Of a DNA stretch of 64,000 nt, positions 5,769 to 46,589 are shown piece by piece; the first letter of the stretch is position 1; every line of letters starts with the position of its first letter. Source of the DNA: Candidatus Omnitrophota bacterium (lineage in GTDB: Bacteria; Omnitrophota; Gorgyraeia; 2-01-FULL-45-10). The stretch spans positions 82,654-146,653 of the forward strand of contig JAQVUX010000003.1 in assembly GCA_028699255.1 (NCBI GenBank). Direction: 5' to 3'. The notes below the pieces were generated by a model. The model did no database searches. It was not told the origin of the DNA and saw only the letters and a program-made list of their open reading frames with translations. Made by a program: the position numbers and the translations under genes.

Positions 5769-7001
5769 ATGAAGTTCTGTTCCAGGTGTATGTATCCTTC
5801 TATGGCGGCCACTCCGCTGACCTTTGACGACAAAGGGGTATGTTCCGGATGCAGGGTAGCGGGTCAGAAAAAAGTTATCGATTGGAAGGGGCGATTCCAG
5901 ATGTTGAAAAAACTGACGGATGAATACCGAGCCAAAAATAATTACGATATTCTTATCCCCGTAAGCGGCGGAAAAGACAGTTATTACCAGGCGCATATAG
6001 CCAGCAAAGAGCTTGGGCTGAAGGTTCTTTTGGTTACATATCACGGTAATAATTATCTTCCGGAAGGCGAATACAATCTCGCGCGGATGCGGGAACTCTT
6101 CGATTGCGATCACATAGTTGTCAAACCCGGCGTCGATGTATTGATAAAAATGAACCGCATCGGTTTCAAACTGCAGGGGGATATGAACTGGCATAATCAT
6201 TGCGGAATATTTACGGTTCCTATCCAGGAGGCGGTCAGGCATAAAGTACCTCTTATGATGTGGGGGGAACATGGGTTCATGGATATGGGTGGTATGTACT
6301 CTTACAGCGATTTTGTGGAATTTACCGCGAAGACCCGTCTTGAACACGGGTTGCGAGGATATGATTGGCACGATTTTACGGATGAAGGACTGGAGAAGCT
6401 CGGCCGCAGTGAACTCAAGGAAGGTCTAAGACCTAAAGATCTTCTGTGGGCGCAATATCCGCCTGATGAAGAGATAGCTTCCGTGGGAGTGCGCGGCATA
6501 TATTTAAGTAACTATCTCGATTGGGACGGCACGAAGAACGCCGAATTGGTAACGAAGCTATACGGGTGGAGGGCGGCACAACAACCCTTTGAGCGCACTT
6601 ACCGCAGTTTTTCAAATCTCGATGATATGCACGAGAACGGTATCCATGATTATCTGAAGTTCGTGAAATTCGGATATGGCAGGGCCAGCGATCACGCTTC
6701 CAAGGATATACGCGCAGGCGTCATGACGCGCGAAAAAGGAATAGAGATGGTGCGTAAGTACGACCATGTAAAGCCGCGGCGTGACCTGGAGCGGTGGCTT
6801 AAATATGTAAATATGACCGAAGAGGAATTTGACGCCATATGCGATACTTTCCGTGATCCGCGGGCCTGGCGCATAGAAGGCGGCCAATGGGTAAAGGACG
6901 ATATCTGGGGCGGTTCTTCCGCTTACGGGCCGGTTCATCTAAAGTGCCCCCAGAGAGCTAAATTTATGCGAGAGGAAAATTATGGCCGAACAAAAAAGTA
7001 A
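5769..7001 (+). CDS. N-acetyl sugar amidotransferase (WbuX/PseA/LfnA-like, PP-loop ATP-pyrophosphatase)
   Basis: Start ATG 5769 with GAGGT RBS. PP-loop SGGKDS. N-terminal CxxC...CSGC. Sits next to hisH/hisF paralogues. Confidence 0.7.
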   Translation: MKFCSRCMYPSMAATPLTFDDKGVCSGCRVAGQKKVIDWKGRFQMLKKLTDEYRAKNNYDILIPVSGGKDSYYQAHIASKELGLKVLLVTYHGNNYLPEGEYNLARMRELFDCDHIVVKPGVDVLIKMNRIGFKLQGDMNWHNHCGIFTVPIQEAVRHKVPLMMWGEHGFMDMGGMYSYSDFVEFTAKTRLEHGLRGYDWHDFTDEGLEKLGRSELKEGLRPKDLLWAQYPPDEEIASVGVRGIYLSNYLDWDGTKNAELVTKLYGWRAAQQPFERTYRSFSNLDDMHENGIHDYLKFVKFGYGRASDHASKDIRAGVMTREKGIEMVRKYDHVKPRRDLERWLKYVNMTEEEFDAICDTFRDPRAWRIEGGQWVKDDIWGGSSAYGPVHLKCPQRAKFMREENYGRTKK

Positions 7002-41991: not shown

Positions 41992-42822
41992 GTGCCGAAG
42001 CAAAGATTGTCCGTAGTTGTATTGACCAAGAACGAAGCGCGCAACATCGAGCGCTGTCTTGAAAGCGTCAGGTGGGCCGACGAGATAATCGTGATCGACG
42101 ACAATTCCTCCGACGCCACCACCCGGATAGCCAAGCGGTATACCGATAACGTGGTGGTGCATTCGCTTGTCGATAACTTTTCCGCTCAAAGGAACCTGGG
42201 TTCGGAAAACGCCTCCGGCGACTGGATACTGCAGATGGACGCGGATGAGCGTGTTACTGACGAGCTCAAGGCGGCGATAATGGGGATACTTGAAAATGGA
42301 ACTCCGTTTTCGGCGTTCAGATTCCGGAGGGTCAATAATTTTTGCGGCAGGTTCCTTGCGTCCGGCGGCGAGGATAAACACCGGCCTCTGCGGCTTTTCA
42401 AAAAAGGGAAAGCGGCATTTTCCGGGGACCGGATACATGAAAAGCTGACAGTAAACGGGCCGATAGGAGACATCGATGCCGCTATGGAGCATTATAATTT
42501 TCCGGATGTGAGCCACTACGTGGAGACTCAGGATTTTTACAGCACCTTGGAGGCGAGGTCGATGTACGAAAAATCGGGTTTGATACCGGAAAAGAAACTT
42601 CGCAGAGAACTTACGATCGAACCGCTTAAGTTATTTTTTAAAATATACATGAAAAAGAAAGGGTATAAAGACGGTATACATGGCCTTGTATTCGCCATGT
42701 TATCGGCCTGGAGACGATTTCTTATATACGCGAAATACTGGGAGATGAACCAGGGATCGTATAAAAATATCGCGTCATTGCGAGGAAGGAGCGAAGCGAC
42801 TGACGAAGCAATCCAAAAATAA
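41992..42822 (+). CDS. GT2 glycosyltransferase, WaaE/KdtX-like (LPS core type), paralogue 1 of 2
   Basis: GTG 41992 with AGGAG RBS. SVVVLTKNEARNIERCLESVRWADEIIVIDDNSSD...DADE. Confidence 0.7.
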   Translation: MPKQRLSVVVLTKNEARNIERCLESVRWADEIIVIDDNSSDATTRIAKRYTDNVVVHSLVDNFSAQRNLGSENASGDWILQMDADERVTDELKAAIMGILENGTPFSAFRFRRVNNFCGRFLASGGEDKHRPLRLFKKGKAAFSGDRIHEKLTVNGPIGDIDAAMEHYNFPDVSHYVETQDFYSTLEARSMYEKSGLIPEKKLRRELTIEPLKLFFKIYMKKKGYKDGIHGLVFAMLSAWRRFLIYAKYWEMNQGSYKNIASLRGRSEATDEAIQK

Positions 42823-42863
42823 GATTGCTTCGTCGGCCTTCGGCCTCCTCGCAATGACGACGA
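42773..42863 (+). repeat. Nested-hairpin repeat element, copy A (outer CGTCATTGCGAGG/CCTCGCAATGACG; inner GACGAAGCAATC/GATTGCTTCGTC)
   Basis: Read directly. Overlaps the last 16 codons and stop of the upstream gene. Ends 14 nt before the carbamoyltransferase start. Confidence 0.6.
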
Positions 42864-42877
42864 TGGAGTAGTAACGT

Positions 42878-44587
42878 ATGAATATACTTGGATTCGGAGG
42901 GCCGTTTTTCCTGCATGATCCGGCCGCGGCTATTGTGATCGACGGAAAAGTTGTCGCCGCCGCGGAAGAGGAGCGGTTCATAAGACAAAAGCACGCGGTG
43001 GGAAAACCTTGCCTGCGGTCGATAGAGTTTTGCCTTAATGAGGCCGGCATATCGGCAAAAGAGATAGACGCCGTAGCGTTCCCGTGGTCGTTTACGGCCT
43101 TTAACGCCGGGAAGTGGCCGTATGCGCTCAAGACGCTTCTTTCGGAGCCGTCGCGCGCGTATAAGGCCATAGCAAAGGCTCCGAAACTTTGCGCCGGAAC
43201 AAAAAAGAATGTCCGTGATACATTGCGCCATTTCGGTATCGAGCTTCCGCCCGAGAAGATATTTTTCGTCGAACATCACATAGCCCACGCCGCCAGCGCC
43301 TATCTATTATCCGGCTTCGAAGAAGCGGCCATAATGTCGATAGACGGATCGGGTGAGTTTACCTCGACATTATTCGCTGAAGGCAAAGACGGGAAGATAA
43401 AGAAGATAAAAGAGATATTCCTGCCGGATTCCTTAGGCAGGTTCTACTCGACCATGACGGCTTATCTCGGATTCGATCCCAACGACGGCGAATACAAGCT
43501 TATGGGCATGGCGCCGTACGGCGATCCTTCGAAGGCCGACCTCTCGGGCATTATTTTCAGCGACGGTAAAAGTTTTCACACGAATCCGGAATACGTCTGG
43601 CCGATAAGTTCGCGCAGGTATTGCAAAGACGCTATGATACCGAAGAAACTTGTGGCCAGGTTCGGCCCGCCCAGGACCGGGGACGAATTGCGCGAGCCGT
43701 ATATACATATAGCCGCCGCGACTCAGAAGATATTCGAGGATATAGTTATAACTTTAATGCACCACCACCTGGGTGACACATTGCGGAGAACGGGTAATCT
43801 CGCGTTTGCCGGAGGATGCGCGCTGAACGTATCGCTGAACCGAAAGCTCGTTACTGATCCGCTTGTTCGGAATATTTTCGTACAGCCGGCTTCACATGAC
43901 GCGGGCACACCTCTGGGCGCGGCTGTCTTTGCCGCCGCGGCTCTTGGCGACAAGATAGCGCCGATGAAGGATGTTTATCTGGGGCCCGGTTATTCGAGCG
44001 CGGAGATCGAATCCGCGTTGAAGCGTCCGGAGATATCCTGCAAGGCCTGCGCCGACATAGAGGAAAGCGTGGCTTCTCTTCTGGCCGAAGGCATGGTCGT
44101 CGGATGGTTCCAGGGCAGGATGGAGTTCGGTCCGCGCGCCCTAGGTAACAGGTCGATTCTCGGTAATCCGATGATACCGGGTACCAGCGACCGCATAAAT
44201 GAGATGGTGAAGTTCAGGGAGAAGTGGCGCCCGTTCTGCCCGTCCATATTGAGGGAACATTCCGCGGAGGTGATCGGCAGAGACATGGACGCGCCGTTCA
44301 TGACGCTGAGTTTTCACGCCGCGAAAGAGTGGAAGACGCGTATCCCGGAGGTTGTGCACGTCGACGGCACCATGAGACCGCAGACGGTGAGCCACAGCGA
44401 TAATCCAAGATTTTATAAATTGATAAAACTGTTTTTTAAAAAGACAGGTGTTCCGGTTTTGATAAACACGTCCCTGAACAGAAGGGGCGAACCTATGGTG
44501 GCCAGCCCGGAGGACGCGATAAATATGTATCTCGGTTCCGGGCTGGACCATTTGGCCATAGGAAATTATCTGGTTACAAGGAAATAG
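42878..44587 (+). CDS. Carbamoyltransferase (NodU/CmcH/TobZ family)
   Basis: 569 aa. ILGFGGPFFLHDPAAAIV N-terminus and a HypF/YrdC-like C-terminal half. Confidence 0.8.
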   Translation: MNILGFGGPFFLHDPAAAIVIDGKVVAAAEEERFIRQKHAVGKPCLRSIEFCLNEAGISAKEIDAVAFPWSFTAFNAGKWPYALKTLLSEPSRAYKAIAKAPKLCAGTKKNVRDTLRHFGIELPPEKIFFVEHHIAHAASAYLLSGFEEAAIMSIDGSGEFTSTLFAEGKDGKIKKIKEIFLPDSLGRFYSTMTAYLGFDPNDGEYKLMGMAPYGDPSKADLSGIIFSDGKSFHTNPEYVWPISSRRYCKDAMIPKKLVARFGPPRTGDELREPYIHIAAATQKIFEDIVITLMHHHLGDTLRRTGNLAFAGGCALNVSLNRKLVTDPLVRNIFVQPASHDAGTPLGAAVFAAAALGDKIAPMKDVYLGPGYSSAEIESALKRPEISCKACADIEESVASLLAEGMVVGWFQGRMEFGPRALGNRSILGNPMIPGTSDRINEMVKFREKWRPFCPSILREHSAEVIGRDMDAPFMTLSFHAAKEWKTRIPEVVHVDGTMRPQTVSHSDNPRFYKLIKLFFKKTGVPVLINTSLNRRGEPMVASPEDAINMYLGSGLDHLAIGNYLVTRK

Positions 44588-44590
44588 AGA

Positions 44591-44675
44591 TTATTCTTCG
44601 AGCGAGACGGAATTTTTATCTTCTCGACAAGCTCGAAGAATAAAAATTCCGGCGAGTCGAGAAGCACCTTCTCGC
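44591..44675 (+). promoter_or_regulatory. Interleaved perfect inverted repeats (13, 12, 9 and 6 bp) in the 5' leader of the downstream GT2 gene
   Basis: a 44591-44603 / a' 44631-44643; c 44608-44619 / c' 44640-44651; d 44620-44628 / d' 44656-44664; GAGAAG-CAC-CTTCTC at 44659-44673. RBS GAGGAG follows. Confidence 0.5.
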
Positions 44676-44691
44676 GATGAAGAGGAGATTC

Positions 44692-45708
44692 ATGAACTGC
44701 GATATCATTATACCGATTTGGAACCAGCATGCGCTTACGAAAGATTGCATAGAGTCTGTTTTTAAAAATACCAGAGGCACCGATTACAGGCTGATCCTGG
44801 TGGACAATGCCAGCGATGAAGCGACAAGGGTTTACCTGGAAGGGCTTGGCAAGGCCTGGCCGGCCGAAGTGACCGTGATCAGGAATGAAACTAACCTCGG
44901 ATTTGTAAAAGCGGTGAATAAAGGGATAGCCGTCTCGTCCGCGCCTTACATCTGCCTGCTCAATAACGATACGCTCGTTGCTAAAAATTGGCTTAAAGAG
45001 ATGATGGCAATTGCGGAGTCGGCGGAAGACATCGGCATAGTCAACCCGTCGAGTAATAACCTTGGGCAGAAGAGCGCGCAGGGCGAGCCGCTCGAATCTT
45101 ACGCCGCGCGCATTGCTAAAGACGCGGGGCAATACATAGAGCTGGGCGCCGGCATCGGTTTCTGCATGCTCATAAAACGCAAGGTGATCGAGCGTATAGG
45201 TTCTTTTGACGAAATATACGGTATGGGAAACTTCGAGGATACGGATTTTTCGAGACGGGCGGTACAGGCGGGATACAAGTGCGTGAGGGCGTGCGGGGCC
45301 TACGTCTATCACAGGGAAAATACGTCGTTCGGCAAGGTCAAAACTTTCGATGAGGATTTCAAGCGCAATCGCGAAATATTCGAATTCCGGTGGGGAAAAC
45401 CCAAAAGGCTGGCGTACATCCTCGACAAAGTGGATACCAACCTTCTGAAAAAGATGAACGGCGAGGCGATGGCGTTGGCGCGCGGCGGCAACCGGATATG
45501 GTATTTCATGAAAGAATCGATAGTTGTTCCGAAGCATTCGAACATAATAATAAAATATCTCCCGGAAGGCTGGTTTTATCCCCGGGTCATTTTCGATATT
45601 TTAAAAAAGAAAAAGAAATTCACCGAAATAATTTTAGGGAACGAGAAGGCCGGAAGGGTGCTTTCGTCGTTGAGTTTTATTCACAAAGCGAAGATAAGCT
45701 ATTACTAA
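44692..45708 (+). CDS. GT2 glycosyltransferase with C-terminal extension (paralogue 3 of 4)
   Basis: ATG 44692 after a GAGGAG RBS. CDIIIPIWNQ...VDNAS...LLNNDT. Confidence 0.7.
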   Translation: MNCDIIIPIWNQHALTKDCIESVFKNTRGTDYRLILVDNASDEATRVYLEGLGKAWPAEVTVIRNETNLGFVKAVNKGIAVSSAPYICLLNNDTLVAKNWLKEMMAIAESAEDIGIVNPSSNNLGQKSAQGEPLESYAARIAKDAGQYIELGAGIGFCMLIKRKVIERIGSFDEIYGMGNFEDTDFSRRAVQAGYKCVRACGAYVYHRENTSFGKVKTFDEDFKRNREIFEFRWGKPKRLAYILDKVDTNLLKKMNGEAMALARGGNRIWYFMKESIVVPKHSNIIIKYLPEGWFYPRVIFDILKKKKKFTEIILGNEKAGRVLSSLSFIHKAKISYY

Positions 45709-45713
45709 CTAAC

Positions 45714-45804
45714 CGTCATTGCGAGCCCCGAAAGGGCGAAGCAATCTAAAACGAGATTGCTTCGTCGCCTTACGTTCAGCAATTGGCTCCTCGCAACGAC
45801 GAGC
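45714..45804 (+). repeat. Nested-hairpin repeat element, copy B
   Basis: Same outer arms (CGTCATTGCGAG / CTCGCAACGACG) and inner arms (GCGAAGCAATC / GATTGCTTCG) as copy A. GCCC-CGAAA-GGGC tetraloop hairpin. Fully intergenic, 12 nt before the next start. Confidence 0.6.
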
Positions 45805-45815
45805 AAAGGACTATC

Positions 45816-46589
45816 ATGAGTATGGAAAAGATACCGGTTTCAGTAGTCGTTATAGCGAAGAACGAGGAAAGCAACATAGCGCCTTGCCTCAAGAGTGTTG
45901 CCTGGGCTGATGAGATTGTGGTGCTCGACGATAATAGTACCGACAAAACGGTGGAGATCGCGAAACAGTATACGGATAAAGTTTCGTCCAGAAAGATGGA
46001 TATCGAGGGCCGCCACAGGAATTACGCCTATTCTTTGGCGAAAAATAAATGGGTGCTCAGCTTGGACGCCGACGAGCGCGTAAGCCCGGAACTTGAGGCT
46101 GAATTAAGGGGCCTATTCAAATCCGAAATGAAAGACAAAGCTTATTCAATGCCGATAAAGAATTTTATCGGCGCGCGCTGGATAAGATACGGCGGCTGGT
46201 ATCCGGCTCCGAAGGTGCGGCTCTTCGACAAGGAGCATTTCAAATACGAAGAAGCGGAGGTGCACCCCCGCGTTTTTATAGATGGCTCCTGCGGCAGGCT
46301 TACGAAGGACATAATTCATTATTCCTACAAAGATTATCACGAATTCTTCCAGAGCCTGAATAACCAGACTACCCTCGAGGCGCGCAAATGGTTCAAGGAG
46401 AAACGTAAGATCAATTTCCTGAAGATGTGGCGCAAGGCTTTAAGCAGATTCCTGAAGGCCTACGTTCAGAAGAAAGGCTATAAAGACGGCCTGCTCGGTT
46501 TTACCGTTTCGTATTCCGGCGGGCTTTATCAGTTCTTGAGTTATATAAAGTATAAAGAGATGCTTGAGAATGCAGACAAAAAGATGTGA
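45816..46589 (+). CDS. GT2 glycosyltransferase, WaaE/KdtX-like, paralogue 2 of 2
   Basis: ATG 45816 with AAAGGA RBS. VSVVVIAKNEESNIAPCLKSVAWADEIVVLDDNSTD...DADE. Confidence 0.7.
   Translation: MSMEKIPVSVVVIAKNEESNIAPCLKSVAWADEIVVLDDNSTDKTVEIAKQYTDKVSSRKMDIEGRHRNYAYSLAKNKWVLSLDADERVSPELEAELRGLFKSEMKDKAYSMPIKNFIGARWIRYGGWYPAPKVRLFDKEHFKYEEAEVHPRVFIDGSCGRLTKDIIHYSYKDYHEFFQSLNNQTTLEARKWFKEKRKINFLKMWRKALSRFLKAYVQKKGYKDGLLGFTVSYSGGLYQFLSYIKYKEMLENADKKM

Follow-up and report, generated by a model that had tools for sequence, protein, structure and literature searches.

The 64,000-nucleotide stretch of a Candidatus Omnitrophota genome considered here (GenBank contig JAQVUX010000003.1, positions 82,654 to 146,653 of the forward strand; the window below means this whole stretch) carries two palindromic elements, copies A and B, within a long cluster of glycosyltransferase genes. 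According to our analysis they are very probably inverted doublets, devoid of an open reading frame (ORF) and similar in arrangement to REPINs and BIMEs, of a repeat unit that belongs with the CGTC-tagged repetitive extragenic palindromes (REPs) and the Ssn-related motifs (SRMs), and the full-length form of the element carries ssn, the gene of a single-domain GIY-YIG nuclease. The preliminary description of this DNA had named a match to a known repeat family as a finding that would refute it, and such a match has in effect been found in the CGTC-tagged REPs and the Ssn-related motifs. The kind of repeat is thus already known (2013, 2025), and it is this sequence variant, with its interrupted stem, that is new.

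Both copies lie where the preliminary description had put them, as inspection of the sequence and scans with the core and the arms agree. Within 64 kb there are two instances of the inner core, GAAGCAATC-N(4-14)-GATTGCTTC, against none in 100 shuffles, the outer arms, GTCATTGCGAG and CTCGCAA(T/C)GAC, are confined in the whole 64-kb window to copies A and B, and a relaxed scan of the 64 kb for the unit returns exactly four half-units, which form two inverted pairs. The described extents stood as to position and had to be corrected at the 3' ends, where the final ACGA and GAGC are flank and the true ends are 42859 and 45801; the doublets are accordingly taken here as 42773-42859 and 45714-45801, about 87 bases each. 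Their parts are as follows, minus-strand units being written as read on that strand.

42773..42859, no strand: doublet A, two inverted units with a 9-nt spacer, missing from the syntenic relative L442.
42773..42814, plus strand: unit A-left, C-GTC-ATTGC-GAG-[GAAGGAGCGAAGCGACTGAC]-GAA-GCAAT-C-C, with a GCGAAGC mini-hairpin within the insert and 0 mismatches to both search boxes.
42814..42822, no strand: central spacer of doublet A, CAAAAATAA, the position occupied by the ssn ORF in full-length elements.
42822..42859, minus strand: unit A-right, C-GTC-ATTGC-GAG-GA[GGCC-GAA-GGCC]GAC-GAA-GCAAT-C-T.
42773..42822, plus strand: end of the family 2 glycosyltransferase (GT2) gene 41992-42822, where copy A encodes the C-terminal tail, ASLRGRSEATDEAIQK, and the stop codon.
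45714..45801, no strand: doublet B, inverted units with an 8-nt spacer, lying between the stop codon (45708) and the ribosome-binding site (RBS) and ATG (45816) of two GT2 genes.
45714..45747, plus strand: unit B-left, C-GTC-ATTGC-GA-[GCCC-CGAAA-GGGC]-GAA-GCAAT-C-T.
45747..45754, no strand: central spacer of doublet B, sequence TAAAACGA.
45754..45801, minus strand: unit B-right, C-GTC-GTTGC-GAG-GA[GCC..GGC]GAC-GAA-GCAAT-C-T.

Aligned with each other, the two copies are 80% identical, with conserved arms and unrelated inserts, and as elements of about 90 bp they end in perfect terminal inverted repeats of 12 bp. The head C-GTC and the sequence GCAAT-C are present in all four units; B-right is slightly decayed, since it has an A to G substitution, its only one, in the first stem base. 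The small hairpins noticed earlier at differing positions of the two copies are real, and they turn out to be independent apical hairpins of single units, formed in A-right by GGCC at 42835-38 and GGCC at 42842-45 around a 3-nt loop and in B-left by 45725-45737. Compared with shuffled sequences, the predicted RNA fold reaches -58.1 kcal/mol for copy A (z -11.8) and -38.5 kcal/mol for copy B (z -4.7), and the predicted DNA fold -36.1 (z -10.1) and -24.6 (z -4.5), respectively. In every unit ATTGC could pair with GCAAT and an apical hairpin could form, and with standard DNA parameters only B-left folds significantly alone (P1 and the apical hairpin, -7.0 kcal/mol, z -2.4). The claim that the copies stand directly upstream of gene starts was likewise borne out, the next ATG beginning 14-18 nt after the end of either of them, and so was the contribution of the last 16 codons and the stop by copy A: GT2 homologues stop at about ..YK(xx), and the window protein runs on with ASLRGRSEATDEAIQK*. 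For the neighbour that the preliminary description had called WaaE-like, Pfam goes no further than GT2.

From several hundred relatives that were read it is evident that the functional unit is the half and not the whole palindrome. It consists of Y-GTC, ATTGC, GA(G), a variable apical hairpin, (GAC)GAA with an optional GAC, GCAAT and C-Y, and measures about 35-48 nt in the window. A pyrimidine (C/T) stands before GTC in 96% of units and after ..AATC in 95-96%, the GTC and the 3' C themselves being part of the search boxes, of which box 2 was matched exactly or with at most one mismatch, depending on the scan. Between the boxes GTCATTGCGA(G) and GAAGCAATC we counted 327 different inserts among 574 units, with lengths of 2-34 nt, and within a doublet the left insert bears no relation to the right one. 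A stem of 3 bp or more, anchored at the ends of the insert, is found in 35% of the inserts versus 7% in shuffles (maximum 11%); GNA triloops predominate among the apical loops, and the most frequent insert is GCGAAGC. The sequence d(GCGNAGC) is a classic extra-stable DNA mini-hairpin, and the frequency of GCGAAGC may be taken as a hint, not as a proof, that it is important for the DNA itself to fold. The ATTGC/GCAAT stem is near-invariant, with rare compensatory pairs (ACTGC/GCAGT, ATTAC/GTAAT, GTTGC/GCAAC). As to arrangement, 201 units are solo and 260 stand in inverted pairs with their GTC heads outward; tandem arrays also occur, as in L047 (2695-2818), where four units follow one another with a 33-nt period.

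The first pointer to the nuclease was a Flavihumibacter soli locus (L148), in which a small GIY-YIG gene is embedded among units, and the analysis was therefore restarted from the protein. An alignment of 33 GIY-YIG relatives (A2) was made, and 80 metagenome loci were fetched by protein similarity only. At least one unit lies no more than 200 nt from the ORF in 67 of these 80 loci, and units lie on both sides in 49, with none in shuffled loci; in 40 of the 80, and again in no shuffled locus, the ORF has a left unit upstream of it and a right one downstream. More than 500 nt away from the GIY-YIG gene the density of units is 0.16 per kb. Eight of nine example loci contain a complete element of 358-393 bp, laid out as unit, 16-40 nt, ORF, 0-25 nt and inverted unit, and the ORF is intact (86-99 amino acids) in six of the eight and disrupted in two. 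The same module of unit, ssn and unit was seen in Zixibacteria, Nitrospirota, Dehalococcoidia-type and Mastigocoleus records, whose proteins share 62-70% identity with each other's relatives.

The associated protein has a single Pfam domain, GIY-YIG (PF01541, E 4.6e-15). The A2 profile matches ORFs flanked by canonical NTS units, the prototype SRMs of Neisseria, with E values of 1e-25 to 7e-27, and a unit-flanked protein is 45% identical over 91% of its length (E 5e-18) to the SsnA orthologue of N. gonorrhoeae, the gene of which sits among CGTCATTCCCGC..GCGGGAATCC repeats. Judged by these similarities, the protein can be assigned to the Ssn-type single-domain GIY-YIG nucleases of about 95 amino acids. 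PDB and NCBIfam gave no entry named Ssn, the sole match being a weak one to UPF0213 (1zg2), and a similarity search of viral contigs with a single GIY-YIG protein gave no match. Because units flank the ssn ORF in loci selected by protein alone, we regard the window copies as the ORF-less form of the module of unit, nuclease gene and unit, in which 8-9 nt replace the gene.

Several loci met in these searches deserve a separate mention. On plasmid p1 of Planktothrix agardhii (L449, 18447-19513) ssn has a type IIL MmeI restriction-modification gene on one side and DISARM drmA on the other, which is a defence-island setting, and its flanking units are of a sister variant, TGTCATTCTGAG..GAAGAATCT, where the GAG/GAA internal loop is kept and the stem has the compensatory ATTCT/AGAAT. 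On pNL2 of N. aromaticivorans (L450, 304886-305952) the units on the two sides of ssn are inverted, identical and of a different CGTC type (CGTCGCCCCGTGCTTGACACGGGGCTTGG), and a ATTGCGAG-type doublet is found elsewhere on the same replicon (L447, 1501-1585), so that two unit types coexist on pNL2 and one ssn was seen there. L251 has arrays of units with a period of about 106 nt on both sides of its ssn gene, and L339 contains 13 NTS-type units.

Two bodies of earlier work describe repeats of this kind. The CGTC-tagged REPs, known from five phyla and apparently having no dedicated transposase, have CGTC or TGTC as the head, a stem that opens with AT and a short C-rich tail, and occur mostly as inverted dimers with their heads outward (Di Nocera et al. 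2013, PMC3733652). The window-type unit has the same head, stem start, tail and outward dimers, its placement between genes is likewise co-directional or convergent, and in both cases there are intragenic, in-frame copies. CGTC-3 (GTCATTGCCGGGCTTGACCCGGCAATCCA, back-translated from the peptide VIAGLDPAIH) has GTCATTGC...GCAATCC in common with it, and CGTC-2 may partly overlap it, N. aromaticivorans being a carrier of our unit and listed in PMC3733652. CGTC-1 is the Neisseria dRS3 repeat (PMC3733652); dRS3 and the Rickettsia repeats RPE-6 and RPE-4 belong to the same CGTC superfamily (PMC3733652) and can be read through in frame within genes, as copy A is, but their stem is ATTCCCGC.. instead of ATTGC-GAG.., and they are restricted to lineages, whereas our unit is pan-bacterial. 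The families of 2013 have uninterrupted stems of 8-9 bp and loops of 4-5 nt (PMC3733652), while the window-type unit has a 5-bp stem followed by the GA(G)/GAA internal loop and an insert of 5-34 nt, and so falls outside an uninterrupted-stem definition; moreover, the 2013 study names no associated enzyme, whereas the window-type unit is tied to ssn. The peptides VIASEAKQS, SLRGAKRRSN and LRFARND, which the unit encodes, are not in the intragenic table of PMC3733652, and the unit is missing from its supplements; a full-text literature search with the DNA and RNA strings of the element returned no relevant paper.

The second body of work concerns Ssn itself, a single-domain GIY-YIG nuclease of the cd10448 type encoded by a gene flanked, often on both sides, by NTS/SRM repeats, a layout of repeat, gene and repeat that its authors likened to an insertion sequence (Chenal et al. 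2025, PMC11893778). An SRM is a hairpin-forming imperfect palindrome of 20-50 nt; SsnA binds NTS/SRM only as a single-stranded DNA (ssDNA) hairpin and in one orientation, cuts 3 nt upstream, is inactive on double-stranded DNA and on RNA and does not bind the latter (PMC11893778). The three bases GTC 5' of the palindrome are critical for cutting and give the orientation, the C 3' of it serves binding, and the loop may be changed in identity or extended (PMC11893778). Our unit resembles the prototype Neisseria NTS (CGTCATTCCCGCGMAVGCGGGAATCYRG) in the (C/T)GTC head, the ATT...AAT stem ends and the C after the palindrome, and the two systems also agree in having inverted units on both sides of a GIY-YIG gene of about 95 amino acids, homologous proteins, and apical variability where the loop is tolerant. 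They differ in that the window-type stem is interrupted after 5 bp by the GA(G)/(GAC)GAA loop and capped by a hypervariable hairpin, and in that the window-type unit is near-identical over more than 15 phylum-level groups and present in phage-like contigs. The unit keeps the very bases that are critical for SsnA (GTC, ATT...AAT, 3' C) and varies just where SsnA is tolerant.

By homology with the Neisseria NTS and SsnA, it would be logical to suggest that in the single-stranded state the unit folds as a hairpin of ATTGC/GCAAT and the apical stem, that a Ssn nuclease would bind this hairpin sequence-specifically, using the 5' GTC for cutting and the 3' C for binding, and that it would nick ssDNA a few nucleotides 5' of the unit, leaving double-stranded DNA and RNA alone. 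A doublet would then offer one cleavable unit per strand, with both predicted cuts just outside of it. The sequences themselves establish the anatomy of the doublets, their status as insertions, the size and spread of the family and its physical linkage to ssn genes. Cleavage of this particular variant is proposed by analogy with SsnA, and a cognate ssn gene is presumably encoded in this Omnitrophota genome; that the nuclease spreads the ORF-less doublets we infer as well, and this is the weakest step of the scheme.

Going one step further, and with considerable doubt, the module of unit, ssn and unit can be imagined as an autonomous mobile element and the ORF-less doublets as its non-autonomous copies, moved by a nuclease-driven ssDNA route that leaves no target-site duplication (TSD). 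If the module is such an element, no lineage of it would be more promiscuous than the ATTGC-GAG...GAA-GCAAT variant; the unit is near-identical as DNA, and the proteins are 60-70% identical, among Zixibacteria, Nitrospirota, Chloroflexi, Cyanobacteria, Bacteroidota and Proteobacteria.

A number of points weigh against the assignment of the window copies to a Ssn-linked repeat or against the part given to the nuclease. No ssn gene was found in the 64-kb window, and no named Omnitrophota ssn is among the matches listed in two protein searches. The published SRM pattern, HGTCWYN(0-2)YYVSBRHN(0-5)WNVSBRGN(0-2)RNCYNB, matched the NTS control and neither unit class, nor the window elements; this pattern is its authors' search heuristic and not a biological definition. 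The units of copy A taken singly give no significant fold with standard DNA parameters, and the case for hairpin formation by a 5-bp stem with an internal loop is drawn from rare compensatory variants at the level of the family, which suggest such pairing. To our knowledge, a hydrolytic GIY-YIG nuclease has no means of strand transfer and cannot join DNA alone. It is equally possible that the ssn gene is a homing passenger that invaded pre-existing doublets, and not their mobiliser.

Returning to the two copies as insertions into the glycosyltransferase cluster, their history can be followed in related genomes, the named closest homologues of the flanking GT2 protein being all from Candidatus Omnitrophota. 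In the syntenic relative L442 the genes follow one another as they do here, and its GT2 proteins are 74-75% identical to those of the window; at site A its genes meet in an overlapping stop/start ATGA, a 0-nt junction, and at site B the gap is 15 nt. Copies A and B are therefore insertions into junctions of a glycosyltransferase operon that formerly measured 0-15 nt, and copy A, when it was inserted, replaced the final codons of the GT2 gene upstream of it. A 97%-identical relative, L446, keeps copy A with 5 substitutions in 87 positions (5.7%), third codon positions of the adjacent genes showing 6.5-7.3%, and one of the five abolishes the GTC head of the right unit; with numbers this small, the sequence comparison suggests a roughly neutral drift of copy A. 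In the Logan short-read assembly of SRR22315503 a 13.9-kb contig (L001) starts at window position 42831, in the inner arm of copy A, and many ssn proteins are found on contigs of only 0.5-1.5 kb; repeats of this kind systematically fragment short-read assemblies.

The surroundings are uniform: over positions 1-64000 nearly all ORFs of at least 200 amino acids are on the plus strand, the junctions are tiny or overlapping, and there are many GT2 paralogues. Another junction of the same cluster has a history of its own. The gap of about 100 nt between the carbamoyltransferase stop and the GT2 start (44588-44690) contains interleaved inverted repeats in the order a-b-c-a'-b'-c', of 13 nt (100% complementarity), 12 nt (100%) and 18 nt (78%), which would form mutually exclusive hairpins; nothing else in the window is arranged in this way, the repeats bear no relation to the Ssn-type unit, and the gap is 5 nt in L442. 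In L443, a strain whose GT2 protein is identical, the equivalent junction (6520-6613, against 6516-6520 in L442) contains a different insertion of 94 nt, which ends in inverted repeats of 11 nt, CCAGCACCTTC...GAAGGTGCTGG, and stands between two copies of ATGA, which gives it the look of a miniature transposable element with inverted repeats (a MITE) and a TSD. This carbamoyltransferase/GT2 junction is thus seen in three states, empty (L442), MITE-like (L443) and with the palindrome of the window.

Outside Omnitrophota the unit is spread very widely. Viral contigs were scanned with the exact unit pattern and genomes, one per species, with the short-spacer pair, and each scan returned at least 120 stretches, the genomic ones from more than 15 phylum-level groups: Alpha-, Gamma- and Deltaproteobacteria, Bacteroidota, Cyanobacteria, Chloroflexi, Planctomycetes, Omnitrophota, Nitrospirae, Gemmatimonadetes, Ignavibacteria, Calditrichaeota, Acidobacteria, Spirochaetes, KSB1, Patescibacteria and Firmicutes among them. 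Omnitrophota make up at least 12 of the 80 genome entries among the matches listed. Cultured isolates with the unit include Pedobacter, Flavihumibacter, Nostoc, Rivularia and Sphingosinicella, and it is also carried by Novosphingobium and Methylosinus replicons, always intergenic and unannotated. We are dealing, therefore, with a huge pan-bacterial dispersed family and not with a peculiarity of the window. In viral loci the stretches that separate distant left and right units contained ordinary phage genes and nothing else. In the phage-like contigs L004, L007, L016 and L037 solo units stand directly upstream of the RBS and ATG of structural genes, several per contig and in a single orientation (six in L016, five in L037).

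Other explanations have been offered by the same data or can be proposed for them. The one which fares best concerns the function of the copies, not their identity, and is compatible with their being Ssn-type repeats: the doublets might be host-domesticated ssDNA restriction marks that tag a surface-glycan cluster, where Ssn would cut incoming ssDNA, so that recombination is lowered or reshaped. In N. meningitidis SsnA lowers transformation by NTS-bearing DNA about 5-fold, and the NTS repeats cluster near genes of the surface and of host interaction (PMC11893778); the window copies, too, lie within a long glycosyltransferase cluster with all large ORFs on one strand. Nevertheless, only two doublets occur in 64 kb, and copy A, changing at about the synonymous rate and having lost a GTC head in the 97% relative, looks neutral and not maintained, so that we consider such a role unlikely.

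A function as cis-acting RNA, which the preliminary description had entertained, is less probable still. It would make the mRNA hairpin a terminator, an attenuator, a processing site, a stabiliser of 3' ends or a control of downstream translation, and the very stable predicted RNA hairpins, the position of the copies 14-18 nt before a start codon in a co-directional gene array, and the preference of doublets for co-directional (45) and convergent (16) over divergent (3) gaps between genes, as known for REPs (PMC3733652), would agree with it. Against it, Rfam gave 0 matches at the gathering threshold over the whole window and chance-level ones only (E 0.63 and 4.9) in a permissive search of 42500-46100; no intrinsic terminator, that is no GC-rich hairpin with a T/U tract, is present at copy A or B; and the orientation of solo units relative to flanking genes is unbiased (37 versus 33). 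The stems are almost invariant across phyla and therefore point to recognition of the sequence by a protein, the apical loops are mostly GNA triloops, and the related SsnA does not bind RNA (PMC11893778). As judged from the sequence, the RBS is not sequestered, syntenic relatives manage the same operon without the elements, and the divergence of copy A is near-neutral. The regulatory interpretation thus finds no support; a hairpin of -58 kcal/mol may act passively on the transcript of the operon, and any effect at the RNA level is more likely a by-product than the primary function.

The preliminary description had also called the element REP- or MITE-like, and here the two halves of the term part company. 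The REP part is upheld, the copies being inverted pairs of non-coding REPs, intergenic and members of a dispersed family, and the strict MITE part is not. Even the REP side does not extend to a classical REPIN, a REP doublet mobilised by a RAYT (TnpA-REP, an HUH/Y1 transposase), which seems to us very improbable. With the REPINs and BIMEs of GTAG REPs the window elements share two inverted REPs making a long hairpin, the lack of a TSD, positions 3' of genes, a non-autonomous nature, and, in the full-length form, an enzyme gene flanked by units and an enzyme that in our scheme would recognise an ssDNA hairpin. The head, however, is YGTC and not GT[AG]G, and the gene found between the units codes for a hydrolytic GIY-YIG nuclease, not for an HUH/Y1 transposase that works through a covalent intermediate. 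CGTC REPs are reported never to flank RAYT genes (PMC3733652), and RAYT subclasses go with GT[AG]G REPs (PMC6006769). When the ORFs lying no more than 600 nt from units in 240 loci were clustered all against all, no family proved enriched and phage genes were the only recurrent neighbours, in an analysis that included no search aimed at Y1 genes; the link to ssn came to light only from the protein side.

A classical MITE, meaning an internally deleted DDE transposon with terminal inverted repeats, is the least credible of all: the element is about 90 bp long, non-coding and dispersed, with its perfect 12-bp ends, but flank matches of 1-8 nt are at chance level in 116 doublets and no TSD is seen at copies A and B, lone half-units are numerous (201 solo against 260 in doublets), and in any locus inspected the arms enclose no transposase and, where a characteristic gene is present, a GIY-YIG one. 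The idea that the GA/GAA internal loop forms a K-turn was rejected for misfit of the register and for the optional GAC bulge; readings as an integron attC site, a CRISPR repeat or a tRNA-like structure were rejected on sequence grounds, and there are no tRNA genes in the 64-kb window.

We conclude that the palindromes of the window are selfish-type repeat insertions, one of which swapped the C-terminus of a glycosyltransferase for 16 residues encoded by the repeat, and which break short-read assemblies. The VIASEAKQS, SLRGAKRRSN and LRFARND tails, which are common as hypothetical peptides in metagenomes, trace to one pan-bacterial REP variant, and a very common metagenomic repeat is now tied to the Ssn ssDNA nucleases, though the published motif pattern misses this variant. 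The tolerance of the apex to arbitrary hairpin insertions is relevant to programmable ssDNA-cutting tools based on Ssn and SRM, as well as to annotation and repeat masking. If the module of unit, ssn and unit is indeed a mobile element, this would answer the question, standing since 2013, of what mobilises the CGTC REPs, and it would mean that a hydrolytic nuclease, in place of an HUH/Y1 transposase, can provide a REPIN-like mobility.

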